A stretch of 64,000 bases of DNA from Eledone cirrhosa. Its lineage: Eukaryota. Each line of letters opens with the position of its first letter. The stretch's first letter is position 1. The stretch lies in assembly GCA_964016885.1 (NCBI GenBank), contig OZ024742.1, positions 288,052,001 to 288,116,000 on the forward strand, read 5' to 3'. This document shows positions 4,241 through 64,000 of this stretch, one piece after another. The notes under the pieces were generated by a model. The model was not told the DNA's origin. It did no database searches and saw only the letters and a program-made list of their open reading frames with translations. Position numbers and translations under genes: made by a program.

Positions 4241-6259
4241 TATATATATATATACAGGAAGAAACGAGAAGGGCTTAATCAAAATTTCTTTTTTATGGAA
4301 CCCACCTTCAGACTAAGATTGTTAAAAATAAAAAAATTTAAAAAATAAAGAAATATTTACAATGAAAAATACAGGTAACTCATTTTCGTTTATTTAAGTG
4401 TCTGCTATTTTACGTCGAGATTCTGATTGAAGTAAAATATCTATTTGGTAATTCAGTATATTTCTATTACCTACATATCAATGAAGTGGAAATGTTGGAG
4501 CATGTGAAATTGATGTCGGCGAAGGCTGTGAAAAATATCCATAAAAATAACTAGTAACTACAGAATAATATATATACATATATATATTAGCACTAGCTGT
4601 TTATAATACATAAACATACTGTATACGGGTCCGAGTACGTCTCTCTCTACAAATATTTTGATGCACTTGTTTGGCAAGAGGTTTGATCTGAGAGACCGTG
4701 TTTTGAAACTGAAGTGACACTGCCATGTCTTGGCTTGTCTCAAAAATGTTTAGAAGGCAACATCAGCATTCCCTGTTATAGTGTGTAATGAAGGGAGTGT
4801 GTCATCCCTTCTCAACCTTTGTTTTCTTTCTCTTTCTGTTGACAATTTGTCTATCAACCTTCTGATAGAAGCGTTGAAATATATATATATATATATTGGA
4901 TTTTAGTCTTCACATTTATTATTATTACTATATATATATCAAATAAGGCTCAGATTATATATATATACATATAATCGTTTTAAGGTGATCATTTACTTAC
5001 TGGCTACTCAGAGATTTACGGTAACTCCAGGAACTCCCAAGGCAAAAAGTTGAATGGCCTAAACTCAAAATATTGCCCCTAATAAATACTAAGCGGAAGT
5101 TGGATAACTTGACTTTCCATTAGTCAGCTTTGGTCATGTGATGAAGCGTATAGCAACGTTTGTTATTGTTTTACCCTAATGTCAGCTCCAATTCAGTAGA
5201 CTTATAAAGACGTTCCAGCCATGACCAACACTCGCCTTTTAGTATATTGCCAATGTATAATACTTTTTACAACTCTAATTCATTGTAAATCACCAATGGA
5301 AAACTAAATGTTTCGCTTTTCACATTATAGTATTATGGTTTCTAATTGAGGCATAAGACCAGCAATTTAAGAGTATAGAAAAGTCGATTAAATCGACCCA
5401 GTACTTGACTGGTACTTTATTGCACTTTAAATATTTATCTTGAAATTTCCGTCCTCCATCCATTCCGTGAAATTAACTTGCAAGTGATGAGCATTCCACA
5501 GACTTGCACTCTTAAGATTCATTGTGGCACAGTCTGTGAGTGGTTGAGCATTTTAGAGACACGTGCACTCTTAACGTGGTTCTCAGGGAGATTCGGTGTG
5601 ATAGTGTGTGACAAGACTTCCCTTTTGAGGTACAACTCATATTTTTCCAGCTGATTTGGAATGTGAAATAAAGTATCTTGTTCGAGGACAATGTACCGTC
5701 AGGGATTAAAACCACGACCTTACTATTGTGCTTGTCCTAATGTTCAGAGGTGGTGAAGCTCTTTACACTCTGGTTTCAAATCCCGTTGTGGTTAATTTTG
5801 TCTTTCAAACTAAAGTACCAGTCAAATACTAGGGTCGATTTAATCGACTTTCCAATTTCCCCAAATTGCTAACCTTTTGCCAATGTTATAAATCACTTCT
5901 CATCCCGAGCGGATAAATTGTTTGCCTTTCACTAATGAATTCGTTATTATTAACACTTCTCATACACCCCACTCTCCAAGAGGAAGCTAGAGTTAACTCC
6001 CCTGATACTTTATAGTAGAAACCCCCCCCCCCCCCCCTCATCACTTACTGTTGTAACACAGCTGGCACTGCGGGAAAATCTCTGTCAACTGTTCACTAGA
6101 GATAGAAATAATTTTGTCACTTACCAACAAAAATAATTCTCCCGTACACCATATATTTATACAAATATGTCTCTTCTTTAATTAACGATTCTGCACATCT
6201 TAACACTCGACGAAAACTGACCAACGAAGATCAAATAATTCGATTTCTGCGGTTGTCTT

Positions 6260-6552: not shown

Positions 6553-8789
6553 GTTTAGATAACGTTGTTAATGCTTTTCAATCAGACGTCTCTTCTTCGT
6601 TCATCAATATAATATTTTATTGTCTTTTTTTTGTTTGATCTATTTTGATGTTCGTAACAGCCCTGAAACAATCTTTGATCAAAGAACTGTTCGGTCAAGT
6701 TGACCAGGGGTTAAATAACTGCAACCAAGACGCCGAGGATGCGTCTATGTCAGTCAGAGGCAAACTGCTGTCGTTTGGCTTTCTAATCACGCTAATCAGA
6801 AATTACCTTGAACCTTTTTTTAGGAGTGCGGCCCGCCTTATTATAAACTCCAGCTCATGCGGCCCACTGCTTGCGAAAGGTTGCCCATACCAGATTTAGA
6901 TGATCACAAATAACAGCCAATTACAACTTTCAACCCTGAAAAGGGTAAATATGGATAATTTAGTGTGGTTAATACAATCACCGTCATTAATGAGAAAACT
7001 AAACGATAACTTGGCTCTCTTGAATTACCGAAACAAATAAAACCCTCACCAGCATAAAAAAACAGGCACACTCCAGAATGTCAGACATCACTCACCCACT
7101 TGCTCTAAGGTCATTCCTATGATCCAACTGTCAAGGACACTGAGCACCCTAGTTTTGTAATGAGGTAGTGCTGGTACTATGATAAAATGTACCTAGCCCA
7201 CCCTGTAAAGTGTTAGTGCCAGTACCTCGATGAAATACACCCAGTCCACCCTGTGAGGTGGTAGTCCTGATGCCATGATGAAAAGCACCCAGACTACCCT
7301 GTAAGTCAATAAAATCCTTCCAGTACATGCTGTAGTGGTTGTTGTTAGGTTAGTCATCAGTAGATAGTAGAAACCATGCTCCCATTACATGCAGTAAAGT
7401 GGTTGGTGTTAGGAAGGGCATCCAGCCATGGAAACTAAGCCAAAACAAAGCATATGAGCAGGATCTAGTTGGCTAACCAGTCTGGCCTCAGAACATGAAA
7501 GCCATCTAACCTATGCAAGAATAGAAAATAGAGATATGTATGTTTGGAGCTATTTCTAGTACTTCTTATGGACTGTCCTGTTATATCTGCCCTTCTGATA
7601 AACGCTATTTTAACACCATGTGGAGAACATTTAAAATTTCTTCCCATGGCAGGTAAATAGTATTATTGTCCAGTGTGATATATATATAGAAGACTGAATC
7701 CCTACTGAGGATTAAAATCTTGGTCTTAAGATGCTTATTACCAAAATCAGTAATTGGTGATTGATATTGATTACTTAAATCGATGGTTTGCTTTATTCTT
7801 TTGGTCTTATGAAACATCTTTGTAGAGGGGTGTACGCTTGTTACCACATTGAAGTATGTATATTTTCTTACATATTATTTACTTTGTATATATGTTCAGA
7901 ATACTAATTGTTTTTTAATTGATATATAACTTTTTTTATATATCACTTAAGCGAGAGCTACTCCCACTGTTGACAACAAAAGGTTTCTCCCAACATACAA
8001 AATGACACCTGTGTGCAAAGAGCAATGCTGCATGGAAATAAGCCATGGGTAGTGACTGCAGAGAAATGTAGTAACCATGCTTCATTGGATGTACAATGTA
8101 AGTGTGAAAGAAAGGCTTGGATGAACTAAGGGGGAAACTGGGTTCAAGAGGAATCCAAAATTCCTAAGTGGTATGCAAGAGAGAAGGCTGCATTAGTACA
8201 GACATGTGATGAACGCTGAGTGAAGAAGAGCCAGGAAATCCCAGAGGAATGAAGCCACAGTAGATGTAGACCAAGGAAGACTTGGGCAGAGATAGTGAGA
8301 GCTGATCTCAAATCACTGAGATTCACAAAGGAAATGATGAAGGAATATGATGAATGGTGAAATGCTGAAGAGGACCCGTCTAACCCATGGAAAAATGGAC
8401 ATAAAAATGTTGATGATGACGAATATTCACAAAAATGTGTTTGTTTTCTCTTCCCATTACATTTAACATTGTAGGCTGTAATATTTGTTAACAGGCCATG
8501 TAATCGGTTCCCTCTGCTCAGCAGTTAGTGGTGGTGTCCAATAAGGGCCTCTGGCCATTGAATTCTGCTTCAAAAAATGTTTTTCACCTTTTGATAGTGT
8601 GGCAAAATATGTTAAACCGATGAAGAGCAACACTATCATTGTCTAAGAAGACATAAGTTTGTGACAACCTCCAAACACTGTAGTTTATATAACCATAACT
8701 ATATCTACATTCATGAGATCCTTTTGTTCGGGTAAATGTTTATCAATATAGAAATATAGTAAAATTTCTACTGTTGAATCTCTTTATCT

Positions 8790-51852: not shown

Positions 51853-52854
51853 TTAACTCCCATTCTCTCCAACATGAATCCGTTTGTGTGTATATAAACA
51901 ACTATTGCGAATAAATGTTTCACCACAGATGTCACAGTGATATGGTTTCTCTCCTGTGTGGATACGTATATGGGTTGATAAGCTGCCACTTACAGAGAAT
52001 GATTTACCACAGATATCACAATTGTAGGGTTTCTCTCCTGTGTGAGTATGTTTGTGTGCAGATAAATTGGAATTTTGAGAGAATGTTTTACCACAAATAT
52101 CACATTGGTATGGTTTTTCTCCTGAGTGGGTAAGTTTATGGGAAGCCAAACTACTACTGTAAGAGTAAGTTTTACCACAGATATCACAGCAGTGTAGTTT
52201 CTTTCCAGTATGAACAAGTTTATGAGTATACAAATTACTACTTTGAGAAAATGTTCTACCACAGATATCACAGTGGTATGATTTCTCCCCTGTGTGGATA
52301 TATTTGTGGGTAGACAAATTACGTTTGTCAGAAAATGCTTTACTACAGATATCACACTGGTATGGTTTCTCTCCTGTGTGGATACGTTTGTGAGTAATAA
52401 AACTAGAACTATATGAAAATGTTTTATTGCAGATATCACAGTGATATGGTTTGTCTTCTGTGTGAATACGTTTGTGGGAAGTTAAATTAGAAATATGCGG
52501 AAATGTTTTACAACAGACATCACAGGAGTATGGCTTCTCTCCTGTATGGATAGTTTTGTGGTAAGATAAACCACTATTATGAGAAAATGTTTTATCACAG
52601 ATACCACAATGGTATGGTTTCTCTCCTGTATGAGTGCGCTTATGAATAGATAAGGAACTGCTTTTAATAAAACCTTTACCACAAACTTCACAGTGGTGTA
52701 GTTTAGTGCCTGAGTGAATAAATTTATGTTGAACTAAATTCTTTCTTGTTGTGAAAAACTTCCCACAGATATCACAAGAGTGTGGTTTCTTTTCTCTGTT
52801 TTCCTGTGTGTCAATAGATGAATCAATATGTTCAGGCTGTATTTTCTCATCCAT
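51853..52854 (-). CDS. C2H2 zinc-finger protein, subfamily B, 11 fingers (ZNF-6)
   Basis: 333-aa ORF starting MDEKIQPEH; 11 C2H2 units. Confidence 0.9.
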   Translation of the reverse strand: MDEKIQPEHIDSSIDTQENREKKPHSCDICGKFFTTRKNLVQHKFIHSGTKLHHCEVCGKGFIKSSSLSIHKRTHTGEKPYHCGICDKTFSHNSGLSYHKTIHTGEKPYSCDVCCKTFPHISNLTSHKRIHTEDKPYHCDICNKTFSYSSSFITHKRIHTGEKPYQCDICSKAFSDKRNLSTHKYIHTGEKSYHCDICGRTFSQSSNLYTHKLVHTGKKLHCCDICGKTYSYSSSLASHKLTHSGEKPYQCDICGKTFSQNSNLSAHKHTHTGEKPYNCDICGKSFSVSGSLSTHIRIHTGEKPYHCDICGETFIRNSCLYTHKRIHVGENGS

Positions 52855-54835
52855 AACTTTCTCTTTTAATCTCTATATATGATGATCTCTGTTAAAGTTT
52901 GAAGATATCTTGTTAAGACAGAACTTGTAATGGATTTCTTAGGACAGACTGTTGTAATTAATAACCAGCAACTAAAAGATCATTAAACTAGCTCCAATTA
53001 ACAAGACATCTCCATATATGGAAGTTTTTATATATAAGACAGTTAAAACATCATGATAAATAATCCCAGTTTAATCTAAATCTCTAAGTTATACATTTGT
53101 AATCAATAAAGGTATTGTTGTAAATAATCTCAATTCCAAGGAAATATCTTACATCCATTCAACCAAGAGTTGTAGAAACAGGCTGACATCAGCTTCATGA
53201 AGTTGTTTTTAGTCTTCAAATGTTGATAAATATGTTGATAATCTTCAGTGAAATATTTATTATCTCAATGTCATCAGATAACCTGAAATATAAAGACAAC
53301 ATAAGACATAAGGGATAATGTAGTGTTAACATGAAGATTATTAGAGAGAAGATATTTGACCAGAAGTATTGAAAGCTAGAATAGCAAGAAACAATCAGAG
53401 AAAAGGCACCCTGGTGTAAATCATCATCATCATTATCGTTTAACGTCCATTTTCCACGCTAGCATGGGTATGTAATGTATATGTATGATGAGGACTCTGG
53501 ATCTGGATGGAGGAGTAAAGACATTCAGAGATGATCACTGGTCACTATATTTTAGTCTACACAATCTTTCACATGATTCCAGTAAACCAAAATACATATC
53601 TACACAGAGAGAACGTAGATTTACTTTACTTGGCCAAAATGTTGGTTATCTGCCTCTCCTCAGATATATCTCAATCAATTCTGAATAAAGCATCATTGTC
53701 TTTTATATTAGTTATTGTAGTTGTTTCTCAGATAAAATAGGACAAATTATTGAACATTTTTTTCCATTCAGAGGTAAAACAATAAAAATAATCTCAAGAA
53801 TGTTCATATTATCAAATAACATGGTACATTCTCTATTTTATACATGGTGTACATATAAACACAATTTGTATAATATATATATATATGATTTATAAAAGAA
53901 ACAAACCAATAGAAATTAATCAGAGAAGTCATTCTCATTCAATTACACACTATAACAGGAAATGGTGTTTCCCTCTAAAGACATTCGTGGCATAGTGAGG
54001 ATGGAATAGCAAACACCCTCACAGGTATCACCTGATATTTCAGCCAAGCATCCCCATCTGATACTTCAGTAAGATGAGCTGCTAACTACATACATTTGAG
54101 CTTTGTATATATAGTTTTACATTTGCTATATATATAAAACATGATTTGACTATGGGCCCTATTAAAACAAGCGAGAAACTTCCCGCGAGATACACCCTCG
54201 TAAGAGTTCAGTTAAAACTGTATAGGTGTGAGCTGTGTTTATTTCTTTCAAAGAGCATCCTTCAACTTTTGGTCATAAAGAGTTTTCATGTAGGATATCT
54301 TGTTTTGTCTATAATTACAAATGTTATAATTTAAAAAAAAAAACTTGATTAAATACAAATATTCGAAGTATTATTATGCGAGTTAAAAAAATATACTGCC
54401 TATGATTTTCAAAGAAAAAAATAAAAATTGAGTTAGTAATATAACTAACAGTGTCATAATTAAGTTGGTGTTTGGTACCGTGGACGGTTTTTACATAGAT
54501 ATAAACACTTTAAAACAAATAGATTTGTAAACAACTGTATATATAAACTATGGAAGGTCTGGGTAATGTGAACCCGATTTTTTAGGCTATTATTTATAGC
54601 AATCGATTGTCTTTCCGACGATTGGGATTCCTACATTTTTTACAAATAAATTTGTATCGTAGAACAAGGGGCGGTTTAAAGCTAATGTAAAAAGTATTGT
54701 CTCGTTAGTGTTTGTATTTTCACTTTCGCTTACGACCGTAATATCGACGAAGTAAAAATTATGTAGATGAAATGTAAATCTAAATATAAAATAGGTAAGT
54801 TTTCAATAAAAGAAATGTGTAAATCTACAATTGCT

Positions 54836-55100: not shown

Positions 55101-56838
55101 TTCTTTTCGTTTTAAATCTCATTTCTCATTTTATCAAAGATTTTACAGCCCCATCTCATTTTCGAATATGTCTGTTACTAACTTACCCATCTGAACGTTT
55201 CTTGTTGTTTATTCCTAGATCAGTTCTAATAATGTAGAACTTTTACTCAAAAACGCTGCAGCGGCACTGCCATCTCATCTTCTCTGTCGATTTCAATGAT
55301 GGCTATTCAGTTGTGCAATCAACTGAACCTCCGACTTGCAAATTAATGTGTAAGTGGTTGAATATTCAGCAGACACGTGTACCTTAACATTTACGACACT
55401 CCTGATCTGCCTTCCGCACTCCTCACGAAATCTGCAAACATTGTAGATATATTATTATTTCTTTACATTGTAGATAGTAATAACTAATGTGATAGTAATA
55501 ACTAATTAACTGCTGTAGTAAACTTCAGAGATTGTTCATTAACCAGAAGAAAATAGAGATATTTTATAAGTAGTTGAAAGCTCTGCTCAATTTATCAATT
55601 TCAAGTGATACTACCTCCTCGTGTGGCAGGTAAGCAGAAATAAAGTACTCCAACAAAATAGTCACAGTTTTAGCAGTAAATAAAAAAAACCTATTGATTT
55701 GTTACTTTTGTGAATTATATTCATTACATACTACTACTTGTATTTGTGGAGGTGTTCACCCGGGGTAGGTTGAGCCGGCTCCATCGAAGGAATTAACCGT
55801 GTAAGTTCATTTCAGTGGAGTTTCTTCAGGCCATTGGTTTTACAAGCGGTGCCCAATATATACACATTAAGATAGTGTAATCCAAGCATTACGTCGGTTA
55901 TAACGCCGAGCTCTTTCGCTTTCACGCTCAACCTAATTTGGTGAAGCCAGTGCCGCGACATCGACGCATGGGAGGGAGTTTGGCCGGTAGGGGTGATACA
56001 CACAACCTATTTGAGCCATTTTGTAAGCCAGTTGGAGCTCATCCCACTACCTAGCTCAGGTACATCAACCCTCGACACCTATATATTATAGAGTATGCAT
56101 ATGTACAAGATGCAATAAATCCCCCCAAGCTTCTCGTTTCCGAATGTAAAAATTAGGAGGAAGAAATACCAAGGATCTTTTCTGTTTGATTCACAGGGTC
56201 TCATTTTATAATAAATTTCTACAAAGTTGTAGTTTGTTCTTACTCATACCATCGGTTTTTTACTCGTATATCGTCTTATGTTTTGATAGATATTTTATAC
56301 ACAGATATACATATATATACTATAATCTTATAGAAAATATACATGAAAACAGACATATACACACATATAGTAACATGTATAGACATATACACAAACACTT
56401 TGTATAAAACTACAAGTGACTATCTCAATTAAAACCAGTTGTCAACCTATTATAGCCAGTTAAATCTATCTTTTCTGTGCTGAAATAAACTATCCCATTA
56501 TCTGATAAATCACTAATTTCAGGCAATACATTTCAAGCTGCCTCCTATTTATTATAGTTCTCTAAGGCCATAACAGAGGTGTTTAAGACAATCAGTTTGA
56601 ACCAACTTAACACAAACTTTTTTGTGCTACAAATAAACAAACTGTCCAACTTTCTGATAAGTCACAAAGTTCAAACTATACATCTCTAACTACCTATCTG
56701 ACAAACAACTACACATTCTTACTTAGACGTTATAGATACACAAGTGGTTAATACTGGTCAAAGAATAATCATTAACTATTCTTTATAGTTTCAATATATT
56801 TATTTCATTTGTTAAAGAGCTGGAAGAATGGTGTAGAG

Positions 56839-58423
56839 CAAAGGTTCTCAACGGGGGGCGTTTCGGAACTCCGGGGGGGGGGGGGGGGAAGCAAGGTCGC
56901 ATTAGGGGGGCGTTTGGAGCTTGAGGGGAGGGGGGGGGGGGCTAGGGGGCGTGGAAGACTCTTTACTTTGTAAGTTTTATAAGCCATATTTGTATGTCTT
57001 TGAGACAGCCAGTGTGAATGCATTTGAATGAGCTTGCAGACAGCATAACTATAGTCTGACCACAGCTGTGAGCAGGTGTTTTCTAGACATTAACCGGTAA
57101 TTGAGATCCTAAAAATGAAAAAACCCACAGCCATCTGGGTCAAGGACACTTTCCTTCACCGATAACAATGTATTTCATGTCTGAAATTATTGACTCAACC
57201 GTAACGAGTTAACACTATGTAGATCTATTTTATTCCCTATTGTATAAATAATATTACAAAAAAAAACACAGAAGCGGGTAGCACACACATCTAGGACCAC
57301 ATACAACACATAGGCAGGTAATACACATATCTAAGACCACATACAACACATAAGCAGGTAATACACACATCTAGGACCACATGCAACACATAAGGAGGTA
57401 GCACACACATATCTAGGACCACATAAAATACACAGACAGGTAGCACACACATCTAGGACCACATACAACACATAAGCAGGTAATACAAACATCTAGGACC
57501 ACATACAACACACAAGCAGGTAATACATACAGCTGGGACCACATCAATACATAAGCAGGTAGTACATACATCTAGGACTACATACAACACACAGGCAGGT
57601 AATACATACATCTAGGGCCACATACAACACATTGTATCGTGCTACGGACGACGCAAGAGCAATGGTCGGCTAACAAGAGCTTCGTCACTTCTGAAGAGAG
57701 AAAATCTATCTGTATTTCCTGTTCATTGTGTCATTCATCGACAACACTTGCCTGAGAAGAAATTTAGCAAGGCTCTGAGCAAGTCCTTGCAGGTGGCCAT
57801 TGATGTCATCAATTTTATCAAACGGCATTCCCTCAATGAACGAATTTTCCAGCAACTGTGCCAAGATAATGAGGAAGAATTCGTCAAGTTGCTCCTTCAT
57901 ACTGAAGTGAGGTGGCTTTCAAAGGGCAAGTGCTTTACTCACTTCTTTCAACTCTTCAACTCTATCATTGAGTTTCTGCGAGGACGCAACACAGAACTGT
58001 ACAAGAAAACCCTCGATGTGAGGCAAGACTGCGCCTACCTCACCAATATCTTCGACAAATGCAATAGCATCATTTTGGCTTTGCAGGGGAAGAAGATCAC
58101 CTTGCTTAAAGAAAGGAATGCTGTGAAAACATTCCTGGCCAAATTGAATGTCATCGAAAGGAATCTTTGTTGACGGGTATTCTATAATTTTCCTAGTGTC
58201 GCCAATGTTCAAAACATTGTAAGCGATGACCAACTCCAAATTATACCACTCACCGCCGTGCACTACAAGACAACATGAGAGAACGGTTTGTCGACCTTTT
58301 GCCGATGGACATCCCAATGTGGATAGCAGATGCTTTCATAGCTAACGTTGACGATTTGGCGGGGGGTTCGTGATTTCAAGGGACAAAAGGGGGCGTTTGG
58401 CCTAAATGGGTCGAGAACCTGTG
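56839..58423 (+). mobile_element. hAT (Buster/Charlie-type) DNA transposon, internally deleted
   Basis: TIRs caaaggttctcaac / gtcgagaacctgtg; TSD GTGTAGAG at 56831-56838 and 58424-58431; transposase remnant 57748-58173 (INFIK..LNERIFQQLC..LLLHTEVRWLSKGK). Confidence 0.9.
57275..57632. repeat. 40-bp minisatellite, about 9 copies, inside the hAT element
   Basis: Unit gcaggtaatacacacatctaggaccacatacaacacataa, head to tail. Confidence 0.9.
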
Positions 58424-58849
58424 GTGTAGAGTAAAGGTTCTCAACGGGGGGGGGCATACGCTCCCCCCTCCACGGGGTGGGGGCGTTAAACTTTGAGGGA
58501 GCTAGAAGCCATTTTAGTTTGGTAAGTTTTATAAGTCATATTTGTACGTCTCTTAGACAGTCAGTTATTTGAATGAAGAAAATAAATTAAAGAAGCTTGT
58601 CAACGAATTCCCTAGGGAGATAAAAGAAATCAAAGAGAATGAAGGTAAGGACTACTTCAACAGAAATGACAAGAAGAAGCAATGGTGGTGAACATACACA
58701 CACACACAGGCCAGCATTAGTGTTTGATGAAGTTGAGAACCTGGTCAACTTTCAGCCTGAAGTGTGGTATTTAAACTCCCTAGGTAATAAAATCTGGCGA
58801 CAAAAATTTCTCCTTACCAAACAAACATCCTTACACACTTAAATATAAA

Positions 58850-59340
58850 TGCATGTATATATACAAATGTATAAATGCATAGCTATATACATACGTATAT
58901 GTATGTATGTATGTAGATTTATATATATAAATCTACATACATATATATATATAAATATACATATATAAATATACATATATATATAAATATACATACATAT
59001 ATAAATATACATACATATATATATATATAAATATACATATATATATATATATAAATCTACATACATACATATCATCATCATCATCATCGTTTAACGTCCA
59101 TGTTCCATGCTTGCATGGGTTTGGACGGGAGTTTTCACACTTGAGGCAAGAGTGGTTGTCTTGCTTGCATAGGACTGTCTGATGGGTATATTTATATATA
59201 TGTATATATATACATATAAATCTACATACATATATATAAATCTACATACATCTATATAAATCTACTTACATACATTTACGTATGTATATATACATGCATT
59301 TATATTTAAGTGTAAGGTATATATATATATGTGTGTGTGT
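58850..59340. repeat. AT/ATAC low-complexity tract interrupted by a SINE tail
   Basis: Directly visible; SINE tail fragment at ~59070-59190 (-). Confidence 0.85.
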
Positions 59341-59451
59341 AGAAGTTCTATTTAAATTGTTGGGATACAACAAGCAAATATTTTTATAACTGATATAAAG
59401 CACTCAACAAATTATTGGAGTAAAAATACGATATATTTATAAAGCCATATT

Positions 59452-59516
59452 TATTTCATTATACATATTTCAAGGACACCAAGTCAAATTATGGTGCGCT
59501 TTCATCAGATAAAATA
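59452..59516 (-). ncRNA. Hammerhead ribozyme motif (left arm of inverted repeat)
   Basis: Exact reverse complement of 59639-59703. Confidence 0.82.
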
Positions 59517-59638
59517 TAATATAGACCAGTTTTATAAATAAATAAATATTGACATACCCTTAAAGAATGCGACCATTTCTGTTGGAAGCTCGAGCTTCCA
59601 ACAGAAATGGTCGCATTCTTTAAAACTGATCTATATTA

Positions 59639-59703
59639 TATTTTATCTGATGAAAGCGCACCATAATTTGACTTGGTGTCCTTGAAATATGTATAATGAA
59701 ATA
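59639..59703 (+). ncRNA. Hammerhead ribozyme motif (right arm of inverted repeat)
   Basis: tattttat-CTGATGA(59647-59653)-aagcgcacca...tggtgtcctt-GAAA(59684-59687)-tatgta-TA-atgaaata. Confidence 0.82.
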
Positions 59704-62355
59704 AATATAGTTTCCATTTGTTAATATATCGTAATATATATATATATATCATCATCATCATTTTACGTCAGCTTTTCTCTGCTTGCAAGGGTGGGACGGG
59801 AACTGATTCTGGCTTGATTTCTACAGCTGGATGCCCTTCCTAACACCAATCTCATTTACAGTGAGTGCTGGGTGCTTTTTTTCCGTGACACCTACACGAC
59901 CACTTTGCGTGGAATGATATGGACCCCAGTCCTATCATCTCATTTCTATAGCTGAGTAAACTGGAGCAATGTGAAATAAAGTGTCTTGCTCAAGGAAACA
60001 ACACATCACCTGGTCCGAGAATTGAACTCACAACCTTTCGATTGCAAGCCCCAATGCTCTAACCACTAAGCCATGCGCCTTCATGTATATATATATATAT
60101 GTATAAGGGATAACAAGTTACCGTTATAGGTAATCCAGTTAGAGGTTGTGAATACTCCGTATTGTGGAAAGTTTTACGTACGCCGTTGTTTCACTCAACA
60201 AGAGGTTTCTTTAGGTAGCGAGTATATGAGTTCTCGGGAGTTCCTATGTAAGTTAATCTTGGAGTAATAATAGTGAAAGAGTGAAGAATACATTGTGAAA
60301 GAGTGAAGCATACACGTATTTAAAATTGAGTGACACAACTTCAAGTGATTAGCAATTTTAAGACAACTTAACCAATGAAACTGGAGCAATGTGAAATAAA
60401 GTGTCTTGCTCAAGGAAACAACACATATATGTATGTGGAGGTATATGGCTTAGTGGTTAGAGCATTGGCCTTGCAATCGAAAGATTGTGAGTTCAATTCT
60501 CAGATCGGGTGATGTGTTGTTTCCTTGAGCAAGACACTTTATTTCACATTGCTCCAGTTTACTCAGCTGTAGAAATGAGATGATAGGGACTGGGGTTCAT
60601 ATCATTCCACTGTATAGTGGTCGTGGAGGTGCCACGGCAAAAAAAGCACCCAGCACTCACTGTAAATGAGGTTGGTGTTAGGAAGGGCATCCAGCTGTAG
60701 AAATCAAGCTAGAATCAGTTCCCGTCCCACCCTTGCAAGCAGGGAAAAGCGGACGTAAAATGATGATGATGATATGTGTGTGTATAATATATATATTATA
60801 CACACACACACACATATATATATGCAGTGTGACAAGAAGCTTGTTTCCCAACCACATATTTCCGGGTTCAGTCGAGCCAACCAAAGCCCAATGCTTGTTG
60901 GTTTGTTGACGTCCCCATAACTTATAGCTTCTCAATTCATTCCTTACTACTTATTTTACTACGAGGTATATTATTTTGCAAGGTACTATTTTTCCTCTGA
61001 GTTTGTGATTTCATATTTTGCATCTTTTGTATTTTGACTTTGCAGTTTCAATTGTCTATCCACTCAAAATATTACAACAGCTAACAGTGAAATATAGAAT
61101 TTAAAAAAAAAGCTTTTTCGACTGAGATCAAATGTTTTTTTTATTTCAAAAATATATAATTTGAAATAGCTTGCTTTTGTTTTGGACTGAAACTTTTTTG
61201 TATGAGTATCTTTTAAAGAATCTAAGATAACTTGATTTGGCCCAGTAATCTACTGATATCAAAATCAGTAGTATATCTAAAAATGGAAAAATAGGGTAGG
61301 GGGCGTTTCGTGATTTAGAGGGGCAAAAGGGGGCGTTTTCCAAAATGGGTTGAGAACCTTTGGTGTAGAGTAAGACGACGAATCTCAGTCCTATGTGGGA
61401 AGGTTGGTTACTGAATATGTAACATTGAAATTGTTAGATACATAGTAGTGAGTAGTCGGTACAGTGGAGAATGAAGTCAATACACAGCAAGAGATACACT
61501 GTAGAGCATAGTCAGTACAAAGCAAATGATTCACACACAAAAAAAAAAAGACTACAGTGAGATATGATAGACAGAGAATATGAATTTTAGATTTGCCAGA
61601 TGTAGAGAAATAGCAACACAAACCAGATGTAGAGAAATAACAACAGAGACGCCATGAAAGGAAGTCTATATCCATTGCTTGGCTTGTTAAATGTTGTAAC
61701 AATATTTGAGGTAGAGTGAATTGCAAGGATAAGCATATTTTCTCACTAACCTCCAGAGTAATGCATTCTTAAATGTAATAATGTTGGAGGTAAAGTGTAT
61801 ATACATATAAGCATAGCTCCCATACTGTCCTTCAGGGTAATGCATTTGCAATACTGTCTGCTGGGACAACGAGGCTACATCCACTTGAGGTTTTGCACTT
61901 AAGATACAAAACAGGGGAACAAAGGAATGTGACAATTTTTCATGGGTTTATTTGTACTGTAACCATATATCACTATTTTTTATATATACATACATGCATA
62001 CATATATATAATATACTTCCTTTTCTTACTAATTATACACATACCCTGCTTCACTACTTTTTAAAAAAATATTTTACAAGTAGTTAAAATAAGAATGTGA
62101 TGCATTTAACAAACTTTACATCTGAACCTCTACATGGCTGTTCTTCAACATGTCAGATATAACAACCAAATGTCACACTACTATCTTTTTAAAAAGTACA
62201 TATTGATTAATGTAACCCAAAGTACATAATGTCTGAAATGTCTTCCATTTTTTTTATTTCATTCCATAAAATGTCACCAGTTCACATTGAAATTTAACTT
62301 AGTAACCATCATATATTATCATTTCATGATAAATATGATTATAGTAGTATAGCTT

Positions 62356-63429
62356 TTAGGCTGTGTGGATACGTTTGTGGGTAGAGAGATTATAGCTATG
62401 TGAGAATGTTTTACCACAGATATCACAGTGATATGATTTTTCTCCTGTGTGGATATATTTATGGGCAGACAAACTACCATTTTGGGAAAATGATTTACCG
62501 CAGATATCACAGCAGTATGGTTTCTCTCCTGTATGGATACGTATGTGGGAAGACAAATTACCACTCAGAGAGAATGATTTACCACAGATATCACAATGAT
62601 ATGGTTTTTCTCCAGTGTGGATTTGTTTGTGAGAAGATAAATTACTATTTTGAGAGAATGTTTTACCACAAATATCACAGTGGAATGGTCTTTCTCCTGA
62701 ATGAGTAAGTTTATGGGATGTTAAACTACTACTGTAAGAGAATATTTTACCACAAATATCACAATGATATAGTTTATCACCTGTGTGGATATGTTTGTGG
62801 ATACTCAAACCACTTCTTTGAGAAAATGTCTTATCACAGATATCACAATTGTAAGGTTTCTCTCCAGTGTGAATATGCTTATGAGTAGACAAAGTACGAC
62901 TGTTAGAAAATGTTTTATCACAGATATCGCACTTATATAATTTCTCTCCTGTATGGATACGTTTGTGGGAAGTGAAATTAGAACTATTAGAAAATGTTTT
63001 CCCACAGATATCACAGTGGTATGGTTTTTCTCCTGTATGAATACGTTTGTGGGAGGGTAAATTAAAACTATGTGCAAATGTTTTACCACATATATCACAG
63101 TGGTATGGTTTCTCTCCTGTGTGAATACGTTTGTGGTAAGTTAAACTACCAGTGTGAGAGAATGTTTTACCACATACATCACAGTGATATGGTTTCTCTC
63201 CTGTATGAATGCGCTTATGTAGAGATAAGGAACTTTTTTTAGTGAAACTTTTGCCACAAACTTCACACTGGTACAGCTTGGTGTCTGTGTGAATTAATTT
63301 ATGTTGAATTAAATTCTTTCTTGTTGTGAACAATTTCTTACAGATATTACAAGGGTGTGGTTTCTCTTCTCTGTTTTCCTGTGTGTCAGTAGATGAATCA
63401 ATATATTCAGGCTGTATTTTCTCATCCAT
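62356..63429 (-). CDS. C2H2 zinc-finger protein, subfamily B, 12 fingers (ZNF-7)
   Basis: 357-aa ORF starting MDEKIQPEY; 12 C2H2 units, colinear with ZNF-6. Confidence 0.9.
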   Translation of the reverse strand: MDEKIQPEYIDSSTDTQENREEKPHPCNICKKLFTTRKNLIQHKLIHTDTKLYQCEVCGKSFTKKSSLSLHKRIHTGEKPYHCDVCGKTFSHTGSLTYHKRIHTGEKPYHCDICGKTFAHSFNLPSHKRIHTGEKPYHCDICGKTFSNSSNFTSHKRIHTGEKLYKCDICDKTFSNSRTLSTHKHIHTGEKPYNCDICDKTFSQRSGLSIHKHIHTGDKLYHCDICGKIFSYSSSLTSHKLTHSGERPFHCDICGKTFSQNSNLSSHKQIHTGEKPYHCDICGKSFSLSGNLSSHIRIHTGEKPYCCDICGKSFSQNGSLSAHKYIHTGEKSYHCDICGKTFSHSYNLSTHKRIHTA

Positions 63430-64000
63430 AACTTTCTCTTTTAATCTCTATATATGATGGTCTTTGTTAACGTTTGAAGATATCTTGTTAAGACAGCACT
63501 TGTAATGGATTTCTTAGGAAAGAATGTTGTAATTAATAACCAGCAACTAAAAGATCATTAAACTAGCTCCAATTAACAAAACATATCCCTATATGGAAGT
63601 TCTTATATACAAGACAGTTAAAACATCATGATAAATAATCCCAGTTTAATCTAAATCTCTAAGTTTATACATTTGTAATCAATAAAGGTATTGTTGTAAA
63701 TAATCTCAATTCCAAGGAAATATTTCACATCCAACCAAGAGTTGTAGAAACAGGCTAACATCAACTTCATGAAGTTGTTTTTAGTCTTCAAATGTTGATA
63801 TGTTGATAATCTTCAGTGAAATATCTATTATCTCAATGTCTTCAGATAACCTGAAATATAGACAAGATAAGACATATGGGATAATGTAGTGTTAACATGA
63901 AGATAGTGGTTGTTTTAACATTAGTATTCAGATGTTTGTGTTTTGGTCATTTAGAGTGTTTTAGTTGTTCATACTTTACAATGATTGGAGAATAGATGAT

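Follow-up and report, generated by a model that had tools for sequence, protein, structure and literature searches.

Head-to-head hammerhead motifs in Eledone cirrhosa: a doubly truncated Hydra-clade Penelope-like insertion, likely primed from both target ends at two fixed sites on one RNA

Two hammerhead ribozyme motifs of opposite polarity face each other across a perfect palindrome in a 64,000-nt stretch of the Eledone cirrhosa genome (assembly GCA_964016885.1, contig OZ024742.1, positions 288,052,001 to 288,116,000; hereafter, the window) and lie inside a hAT-type element, which raises the question of what put them there. An earlier note, made from the sequence of the window, had traced the pair to Penelope-like elements, but had also read it as a non-autonomous retrozyme-like or viroid-like unit that the surrounding hAT element might re-mobilise. 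Here, we argue that the pair is very probably an insertion, truncated in both copies, of a Penelope-like element of the Hydra clade, and that the two ends of the cut target likely both primed reverse transcription from the same RNA, at two fixed start sites.

The dimensions recorded earlier were reproduced: a 64-bp perfect palindrome centred between 59591 and 59592 with zero spacer, and 88-bp arms (59447–59534 and 59621–59708) that differ at one of 88 positions. These sequences stand, but their supposed layout, with arms placed around a palindrome, does not: there is a single head-to-head duplication at 59340–59733, which appears split into a 64-bp core and 88-bp arms because the right arm lacks 28 bp of the left arm. 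Read from its sequence, this insertion of about 400 bp is two 5′-truncated copies of an end repeat (pLTR), set head to head in (TA)n (Table 1). The two arms share their first base, which lies 77 nt upstream of a 54-nt core (−77). Compared with other copies, the left arm has gained 4 bp and lost 19 bp, and the right arm lacks 14 bp present in most. On the minus strand, the left arm runs from its 87-nt tail into (CA)5 and then (TA)n; at these insertions, target duplications are unreadable within the microsatellite flanks. An identical 14-bp deletion between short repeats recurs in L012, L017, L019, L021 and the window (at 59708), affecting a single arm wherever the arms are paired.

Table 1. Features of the head-to-head insertion and of the hAT-type elements around it (window coordinates).
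Feature	Position	Strand	Remark
Left arm: 5′-truncated pLTR copy with tailed (long) 3′ end	59340..59591	−	halves aligned
Right arm: 5′-truncated pLTR copy with short 3′ end	59592..59733	+	halves aligned
Perfect 64-bp palindrome: blunt head-to-head junction, shortened by right-arm deletion	59560..59623	.	
Apparent 25-bp spacer: family sequence in left arm only, deleted in right arm	59535..59559	−	compare L069
87-nt tail	59340..59426	−	in full-length L069, same sequence continues into 5′ UTR, ~50 nt before ORF ATG
Left target flank: (TA)n, then (TG)5 touching tail end	59318..59339	.	
Right target flank: (TA)n directly after short end	59734..59749	.	
Type I minimal hammerhead motif	59631..59710	+	N17 = 59695; predicted cut after 59695
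Second hammerhead motif, opposite strand	59445..59524	−	predicted cut after 59460, by mirror symmetry
hAT-type element B, older, non-autonomous	58432..61362	+	terminal inverted repeats; host of insertion only
hAT-type element A, in tandem with B	56839..58423	+	same 8-bp site

Palindromes are prone to assembly fold-back, and no piece spanning the stretch appeared among two contig sets and two RAD runs, the reads coming from many copies. However, one substitution and several indels separate the two arms, whose outer ends and flanks are also not alike, and dozens of other loci repeat the same design with other junctions; an assembly artefact is thus highly improbable.

As had been reported, each arm holds a complete hammerhead motif, with CUGAUGA, stem II, GAAA and the AUA triplet all present. 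The build, which runs from a long stem I through CUGAUGA, an internally mismatched stem II and GAAA to a stem III of 2 bp with a self-complementary loop, shows the structural features given for type I minimal hammerheads in PMC4209133, namely the core, stems I and II and a short self-complementary helix III. A search against Rfam, whose RF00163 model the earlier note had suggested as a check, came back without a hammerhead, both at the gathering score across the whole window and at E ≤ 10 for 59300–59850; Rfam gave only hairpin-driven microRNA matches, far under threshold. The hammerhead call therefore rests on the core sequence and on covariation. Across 17 related motifs, selected by eye for similar build from 92 distinct regular-expression candidates in 791 kb of loci, pairing holds in 95.4% of cells and 31 changes are two-sided; none of 500 shuffles reached that level and all slid controls paired at 41–56%. 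As the rows are related and the structure was taken from one of them, these figures serve as support, not as a probability.

Folding of both strands placed stems I and II in the minimum free energy (MFE) structure of each arm (z −2.44 and −2.21). The catalytic monomer fold is calculated at −11.7 kcal/mol, against −16.2 for the MFE, and the helix III octamer can pair with itself (−2.2); self-pairing of helix III is described for dimer-type minimal hammerhead motifs in the portion of PMC4209133 used here. The rod-like fold that had been expected to bury the ribozyme is also predicted, at −205.7 kcal/mol when free, compared with −103.3 with the ribozyme stems enforced. On either strand the ribozyme comes after its own antisense, so a read-through RNA is predicted to be ribozyme-silent. 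Hammerhead motifs of other subfamilies also occur in the window, at least four besides the pair (1101, 28817 on the minus strand, 37652 and 42081).

Exact matches to the 54-nt core number 191 across the 3.0-Gb genome, against none for a control. A sample of 100 of these (contigs C1–C10) yielded 83 sites, every one of which was examined; one site (L090) repeats another (L089) and was dropped, leaving 82 independent sites. A divergent hammerhead pair occurs at 39 of these 82 (40 of 83 with L090), although more widely spaced pairs may go uncounted, because 5′-side flanks reach only ~0.7–4.5 kb. The two-arm structure, for which the earlier note had proposed a genome-wide search, is therefore no single-locus accident, and the palindrome in the window is one ordinary Penelope-like insertion among dozens alike. 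At 51 of the 82 sites, an inverted piece lies within 60 bp of the 5′ end.

The parent of these fragments was reached by a search with a coding fragment from L031. One full-length copy (L069) runs from pLTR through 5′ UTR, ORF, long 3′ UTR and second pLTR to the tail, with its cores 4226 bp apart; L068, L071 and L073 have a similar layout, with two same-strand cores 3.7–4.2 kb apart, and L068 has one inverted core as well. The ORF begins ~240 nt after the first base of the core and is broken at all 16 loci examined. Its motifs comprise RWR (RIRWRA), DKT (SDKT), YRDD, CxCX5C, CxxC ahead of E, and a terminal CxH; its protein lacks a cysteine pair inside GIY-YIG. YRDD together with IVY..YVG in L069, L074 and L068 points to a reverse transcriptase followed by a C-terminal GIY-YIG domain in a single ORF. 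Among 27 aligned rows, DKT or DKS is found in all 27 and DKG in none, while CxCX5C is found in 22, CxxC..E in 26 and CxH in 24. The ORF protein has 63 homologues, the best, from Argonauta hians, being 39% identical, which along with the zinc-finger arrays of the window points to a cephalopod host; Atlas neighbours of a homologue carry GIY-YIG and RVT_1. Pfam returned no family for five ORF fragments and, for five homologues, one sub-threshold match to GIY-YIG, and a PDB profile search with the ORF gave no matches, so that motifs and look-alikes are the basis for calling the reverse transcriptase and the nuclease.

Features listed as diagnostic for the Hydra clade are RWK, DKT rather than DKG, a CxCX5C linker, CxxC, CxH, no CCHH and a (TA)n target (PMC8557442, section 11). 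Our family resembles this clade, as described in the parts of that paper on which we draw here and below, in its RWK-like motif, DKT, CxCX5C, CxxC, CxH, lack of CCHH, C-terminal GIY-YIG, (TA)n target and end-repeat hammerhead, and differs in its 4.2-kb size, long 3′ UTR and 87-nt tail. Hydra elements are generally <3 kb (PMC8557442), a tendency that the parent, at 4226 bp from core to core, does not follow. Hammerhead-bearing pLTRs, direct or inverted, are present as in Penelope-like elements at large (L069, L068, L071 and L073), with covariation behind the motif. The family, its full-length parent L069 and the ORF motifs together bear out the Penelope-like origin, minimal pLTR hammerheads and inverted 5′ end claimed earlier, and we hold with high confidence that the motifs and layout place the insertion in a 4.2-kb family of the Hydra clade. 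The supplement of PMC8557442 lists Hydra-1_Obim, from Octopus bimaculoides, and Penelope-13_HM; the hammerhead here is unlike the sequence listed for Hydra-1_Obim, which indicates a different family, and Penelope-13_HM itself has an inverted 5′-truncated copy with a hammerhead on each strand.

Viroid-like RNAs combine a rod fold with ribozyme motifs in both polarities, the former predicted and the latter seen at our locus. A non-autonomous unit of retrozyme or viroid-like type, transcribed with ribozymes of both polarities, circularised and re-inserted whole, would fit these two intact motifs and the rod-like prediction, as well as the clustering of 28 of 40 pair spacings, across the 83 sampled sites, between 92 and 264 bp. 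Yet the spacings extend over 92–4298 bp, which means that no fixed unit is being copied, and junction positions vary from site to site; with a single hammerhead on each strand, no unit-length monomer can be released, and short tandem arrays occur at none of the 83 sites. The sole repeated pair among sampled sites (L089/L090) repeats together with a neighbouring older pair, in the manner of a segmental duplication. Animal non-LTR retrozymes are defined, in the part of the preprint cited here, as tandem repeats with one hammerhead per unit (bioRxiv 10.64898/2026.07.22.740005); our family shares their type I hammerhead, but has no tandem unit, no fixed unit boundary and one ribozyme per strand. 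With a full-length parent in existence as well, this part of the earlier interpretation falls away, and we consider it very improbable.

Nesting within the hAT element is confirmed by terminal inverted repeats at 58432 and 61362 with GTGTAGAG on each side; this 8-bp sequence occurs three times (56831–56838, 58424–58431 and 61363–61370), bounding the tandem elements A and B, and element A retains a transposase-like remnant (57616–58173) with look-alikes in the FAM200/ZBED5 group. Carriage of the hammerhead pair as cargo spread by the hAT, as had been suggested, would accord with its position inside terminal inverted repeats that look intact and are bounded by matching 8-bp duplicates. However, hAT ends are found at none of the 82 other loci, and ten other copies of element B, inspected from about 2088 candidate places, share the ends and an inner microsatellite but have no hammerhead unit. 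The hAT copies are 83–92% alike, compared with 191 exact matches for the core, which makes the Penelope-like insertion probably the later arrival. Cargo status is thus scarcely credible, and the hAT is likely a bystander into which the Penelope-like element later, and incidentally, inserted.

How the insertion arose is best approached through its ends. The family has two fixed 3′ ends, 87–90 nt apart, and 38 of the 39 sampled pairs combine a short with a tailed one; the exceptions to this rule are L050, with two short ends, and L147, with two tailed ends, the latter missed by the core scan. Inverted 5′-truncated copies and one-sided tails are typical of Penelope-like elements (PMC8557442, in part), in which tails of 30–40 nt are reported, against 87 nt here. 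(TA)n adjoins 59 of 64 short ends. Among 133 5′ ends, 56 fall within 20 nt (−90 to −71), with a mode at −86 (11 ends). At four sites (L047, +103; L048, +93; L129, +101; L096, +131), the inverted piece is tail-only, duplicates no hammerhead and ends at or near the short-end site (+103). Cleavage by the ribozyme was considered as a source of the 5′ ends and rejected, as the cut lies at +50 and just one of the 133 ends (+48) is near it. In two copies (L069 near 7640–7680 and L031 near 5024–5060), a motif that we take to be octamer-like and an AT-rich box lie 15–35 nt upstream of the −86 edge, and are a possible promoter.

Sequence variants link the two arms of a pair. In 43 pairs (39 from the census sample and four additional), ten private variants are common to both arms and 156 are unshared; the mean expected number of shared variants is 1.35 (maximum 6), and none of 2000 re-pairings reached ten. 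The regularity of the pairs suggests that both halves were likely copied from one RNA in a single insertion; as a counterpoint, the unshared variants far outnumber the shared ones, which could stem from gene conversion between arms. ATTT repeat counts, being nearly invariant, were uninformative.

In LINE-1 twin priming, a 5′ inversion arises through a second primer on the same RNA. Products of that kind resemble the tail-only sites described above; here, by contrast, the second site is fixed, and overlap between the arms usually leads to a duplication rather than a simple inversion. In the course of events that we propose, the endonuclease would cut both target strands, and the two DNA ends would prime at different sites of a single RNA, one using the tail end and its partner the short end. 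Both cDNAs would extend towards the RNA 5′ end, which DNA ends suggest to be a likely transcription start lying ~86 nt upstream of the core; the trailing polymerase would either halt at the second site or displace the leading cDNA. The cDNAs would run off near the RNA 5′ end and be joined there, either bluntly or with the help of a short stretch of homology, with subsequent deletions between short repeats breaking the symmetry of the arms. Ribozymes in two polarities would then be a by-product of insertion.

An Anolis Penelope-like enzyme offers a precedent (PMC11167929): it cuts and extends both strands, begins at two internal sites that delimit the tail, has been modelled as a dimer and can do without ribozyme cleavage. 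The Poseidon element PAc of Anolis resembles our family in those two start sites, an AT-rich target and ends not set by the ribozyme cut; it differs in that its ORF starts inside the hammerhead rather than ~240 nt after the first base of the core, and in that its choice of start site did not depend on the strand in vitro (PMC11167929), whereas our pairs combine one site of either kind. We see roughly even chances for a stricter version of our model, in which a dimeric enzyme would invariably start one cut end at each fixed site of a single pLTR-initiated RNA, with the trailing polymerase displacing the leading cDNA. If true, the stumps would record in vivo the unsolved step by which Penelope elements insert, one priming rule would account for tails on one side, head-to-head inversion, tail-only pieces and the common 5′ edge, and each such insertion would be predicted to create a double-stranded RNA hairpin silencing its own ribozyme.

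The inverted arm might instead have come from snap-back of the same element, in which a single copy folds back and is recopied, or an antisense template primes its own synthesis; the Discussion of PMC3846280 interprets the Penelope elements of rotifers in this way. It would suit the 9 of 51 junctions that are symmetric within 2 nt, several of them centred on short natural palindromes, and the private variants common to both arms. On the other hand, the four tail-only sites duplicate 0–10 nt and thus cannot be snap-back copies, the longer arm is the tailed one at some sites and the short one at others, and the junction at our locus has no loop. We regard snap-back as possible but rather unlikely, and lean towards twin priming as the source of the inverted arm; both processes may be at work.

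Published head-to-head insertions offer the closest parallels. Junction palindromes of this kind are abundant, according to the portion of PMC3846280 cited, and our family shares with Penelope of Adineta vaga its head-to-head inverted pLTRs, junction palindromes and tail on one end only; it is unlike that element in consisting mostly of end-repeat-only stumps, in its high number and in having no readable target duplication. Insertions of this kind are already known, since inverted Penelope ends are in print (PMC3846280; PMC8557442). In a search judged by title, with subscription literature outside its scope, neither twin priming in Penelope elements nor this family turned up as the subject of a paper.

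Taken singly, the locus carries little weight, as there are dozens of like insertions and opposite-strand hammerheads are already tabulated for a Hydra element (PMC8557442). The origin of inverted ends in Penelope-like elements is called undefined in that source. This young, homogeneous family supplies countable rules by which twin priming can be told apart from snap-back, namely the pairing of a short with a tailed end, a sharp 5′ edge, inverted pieces of tail only and variants common to the arms. These rules are testable in the existing in vitro system, which makes the origin of inverted Penelope ends testable too.

Several further arrangements were noted among the sampled loci. L089 and L090 (C1:211.60 and 211.66 Mb) each hold two nested head-to-head pairs of different ages, as an inverted duplication 62 kb apart; these are the sole convergent neighbours in the sample and, like the same-strand neighbours at L134 and L120, involve more diverged copies. 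Divergent hammerhead pairs are also present in older related subfamilies (L089, L120, L131 and L015). Inner 3′ UTR or ORF sequence is inverted without a second hammerhead at L103, L032 and L107, resembling LINE-type 5′ inversions. The templated CA at the tail end has grown to 2–30 repeats at 8 of 36 ends (including L031, L032, L034, L110 and 59330–59339 in the window); telomerase-like (CA)n addition was considered for these ends with ≥2 CA and set aside, as microsatellite slippage explains them equally well; the expansion may date from slippage during priming or from growth of the microsatellite afterwards.

Within the window, C2H2 zinc-finger ORFs flank the region on the minus strand (51853–52872 and 62356–63447), and the palindrome lies ~2.6 kb downstream of the latter, so read-through is possible. 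Beside the palindrome are two opposite copies of a tRNA-like SINE (59732–60106 on the minus strand and 60425–60796 on the plus strand), which are 94–95% complementary and would form a second long hairpin if transcribed.
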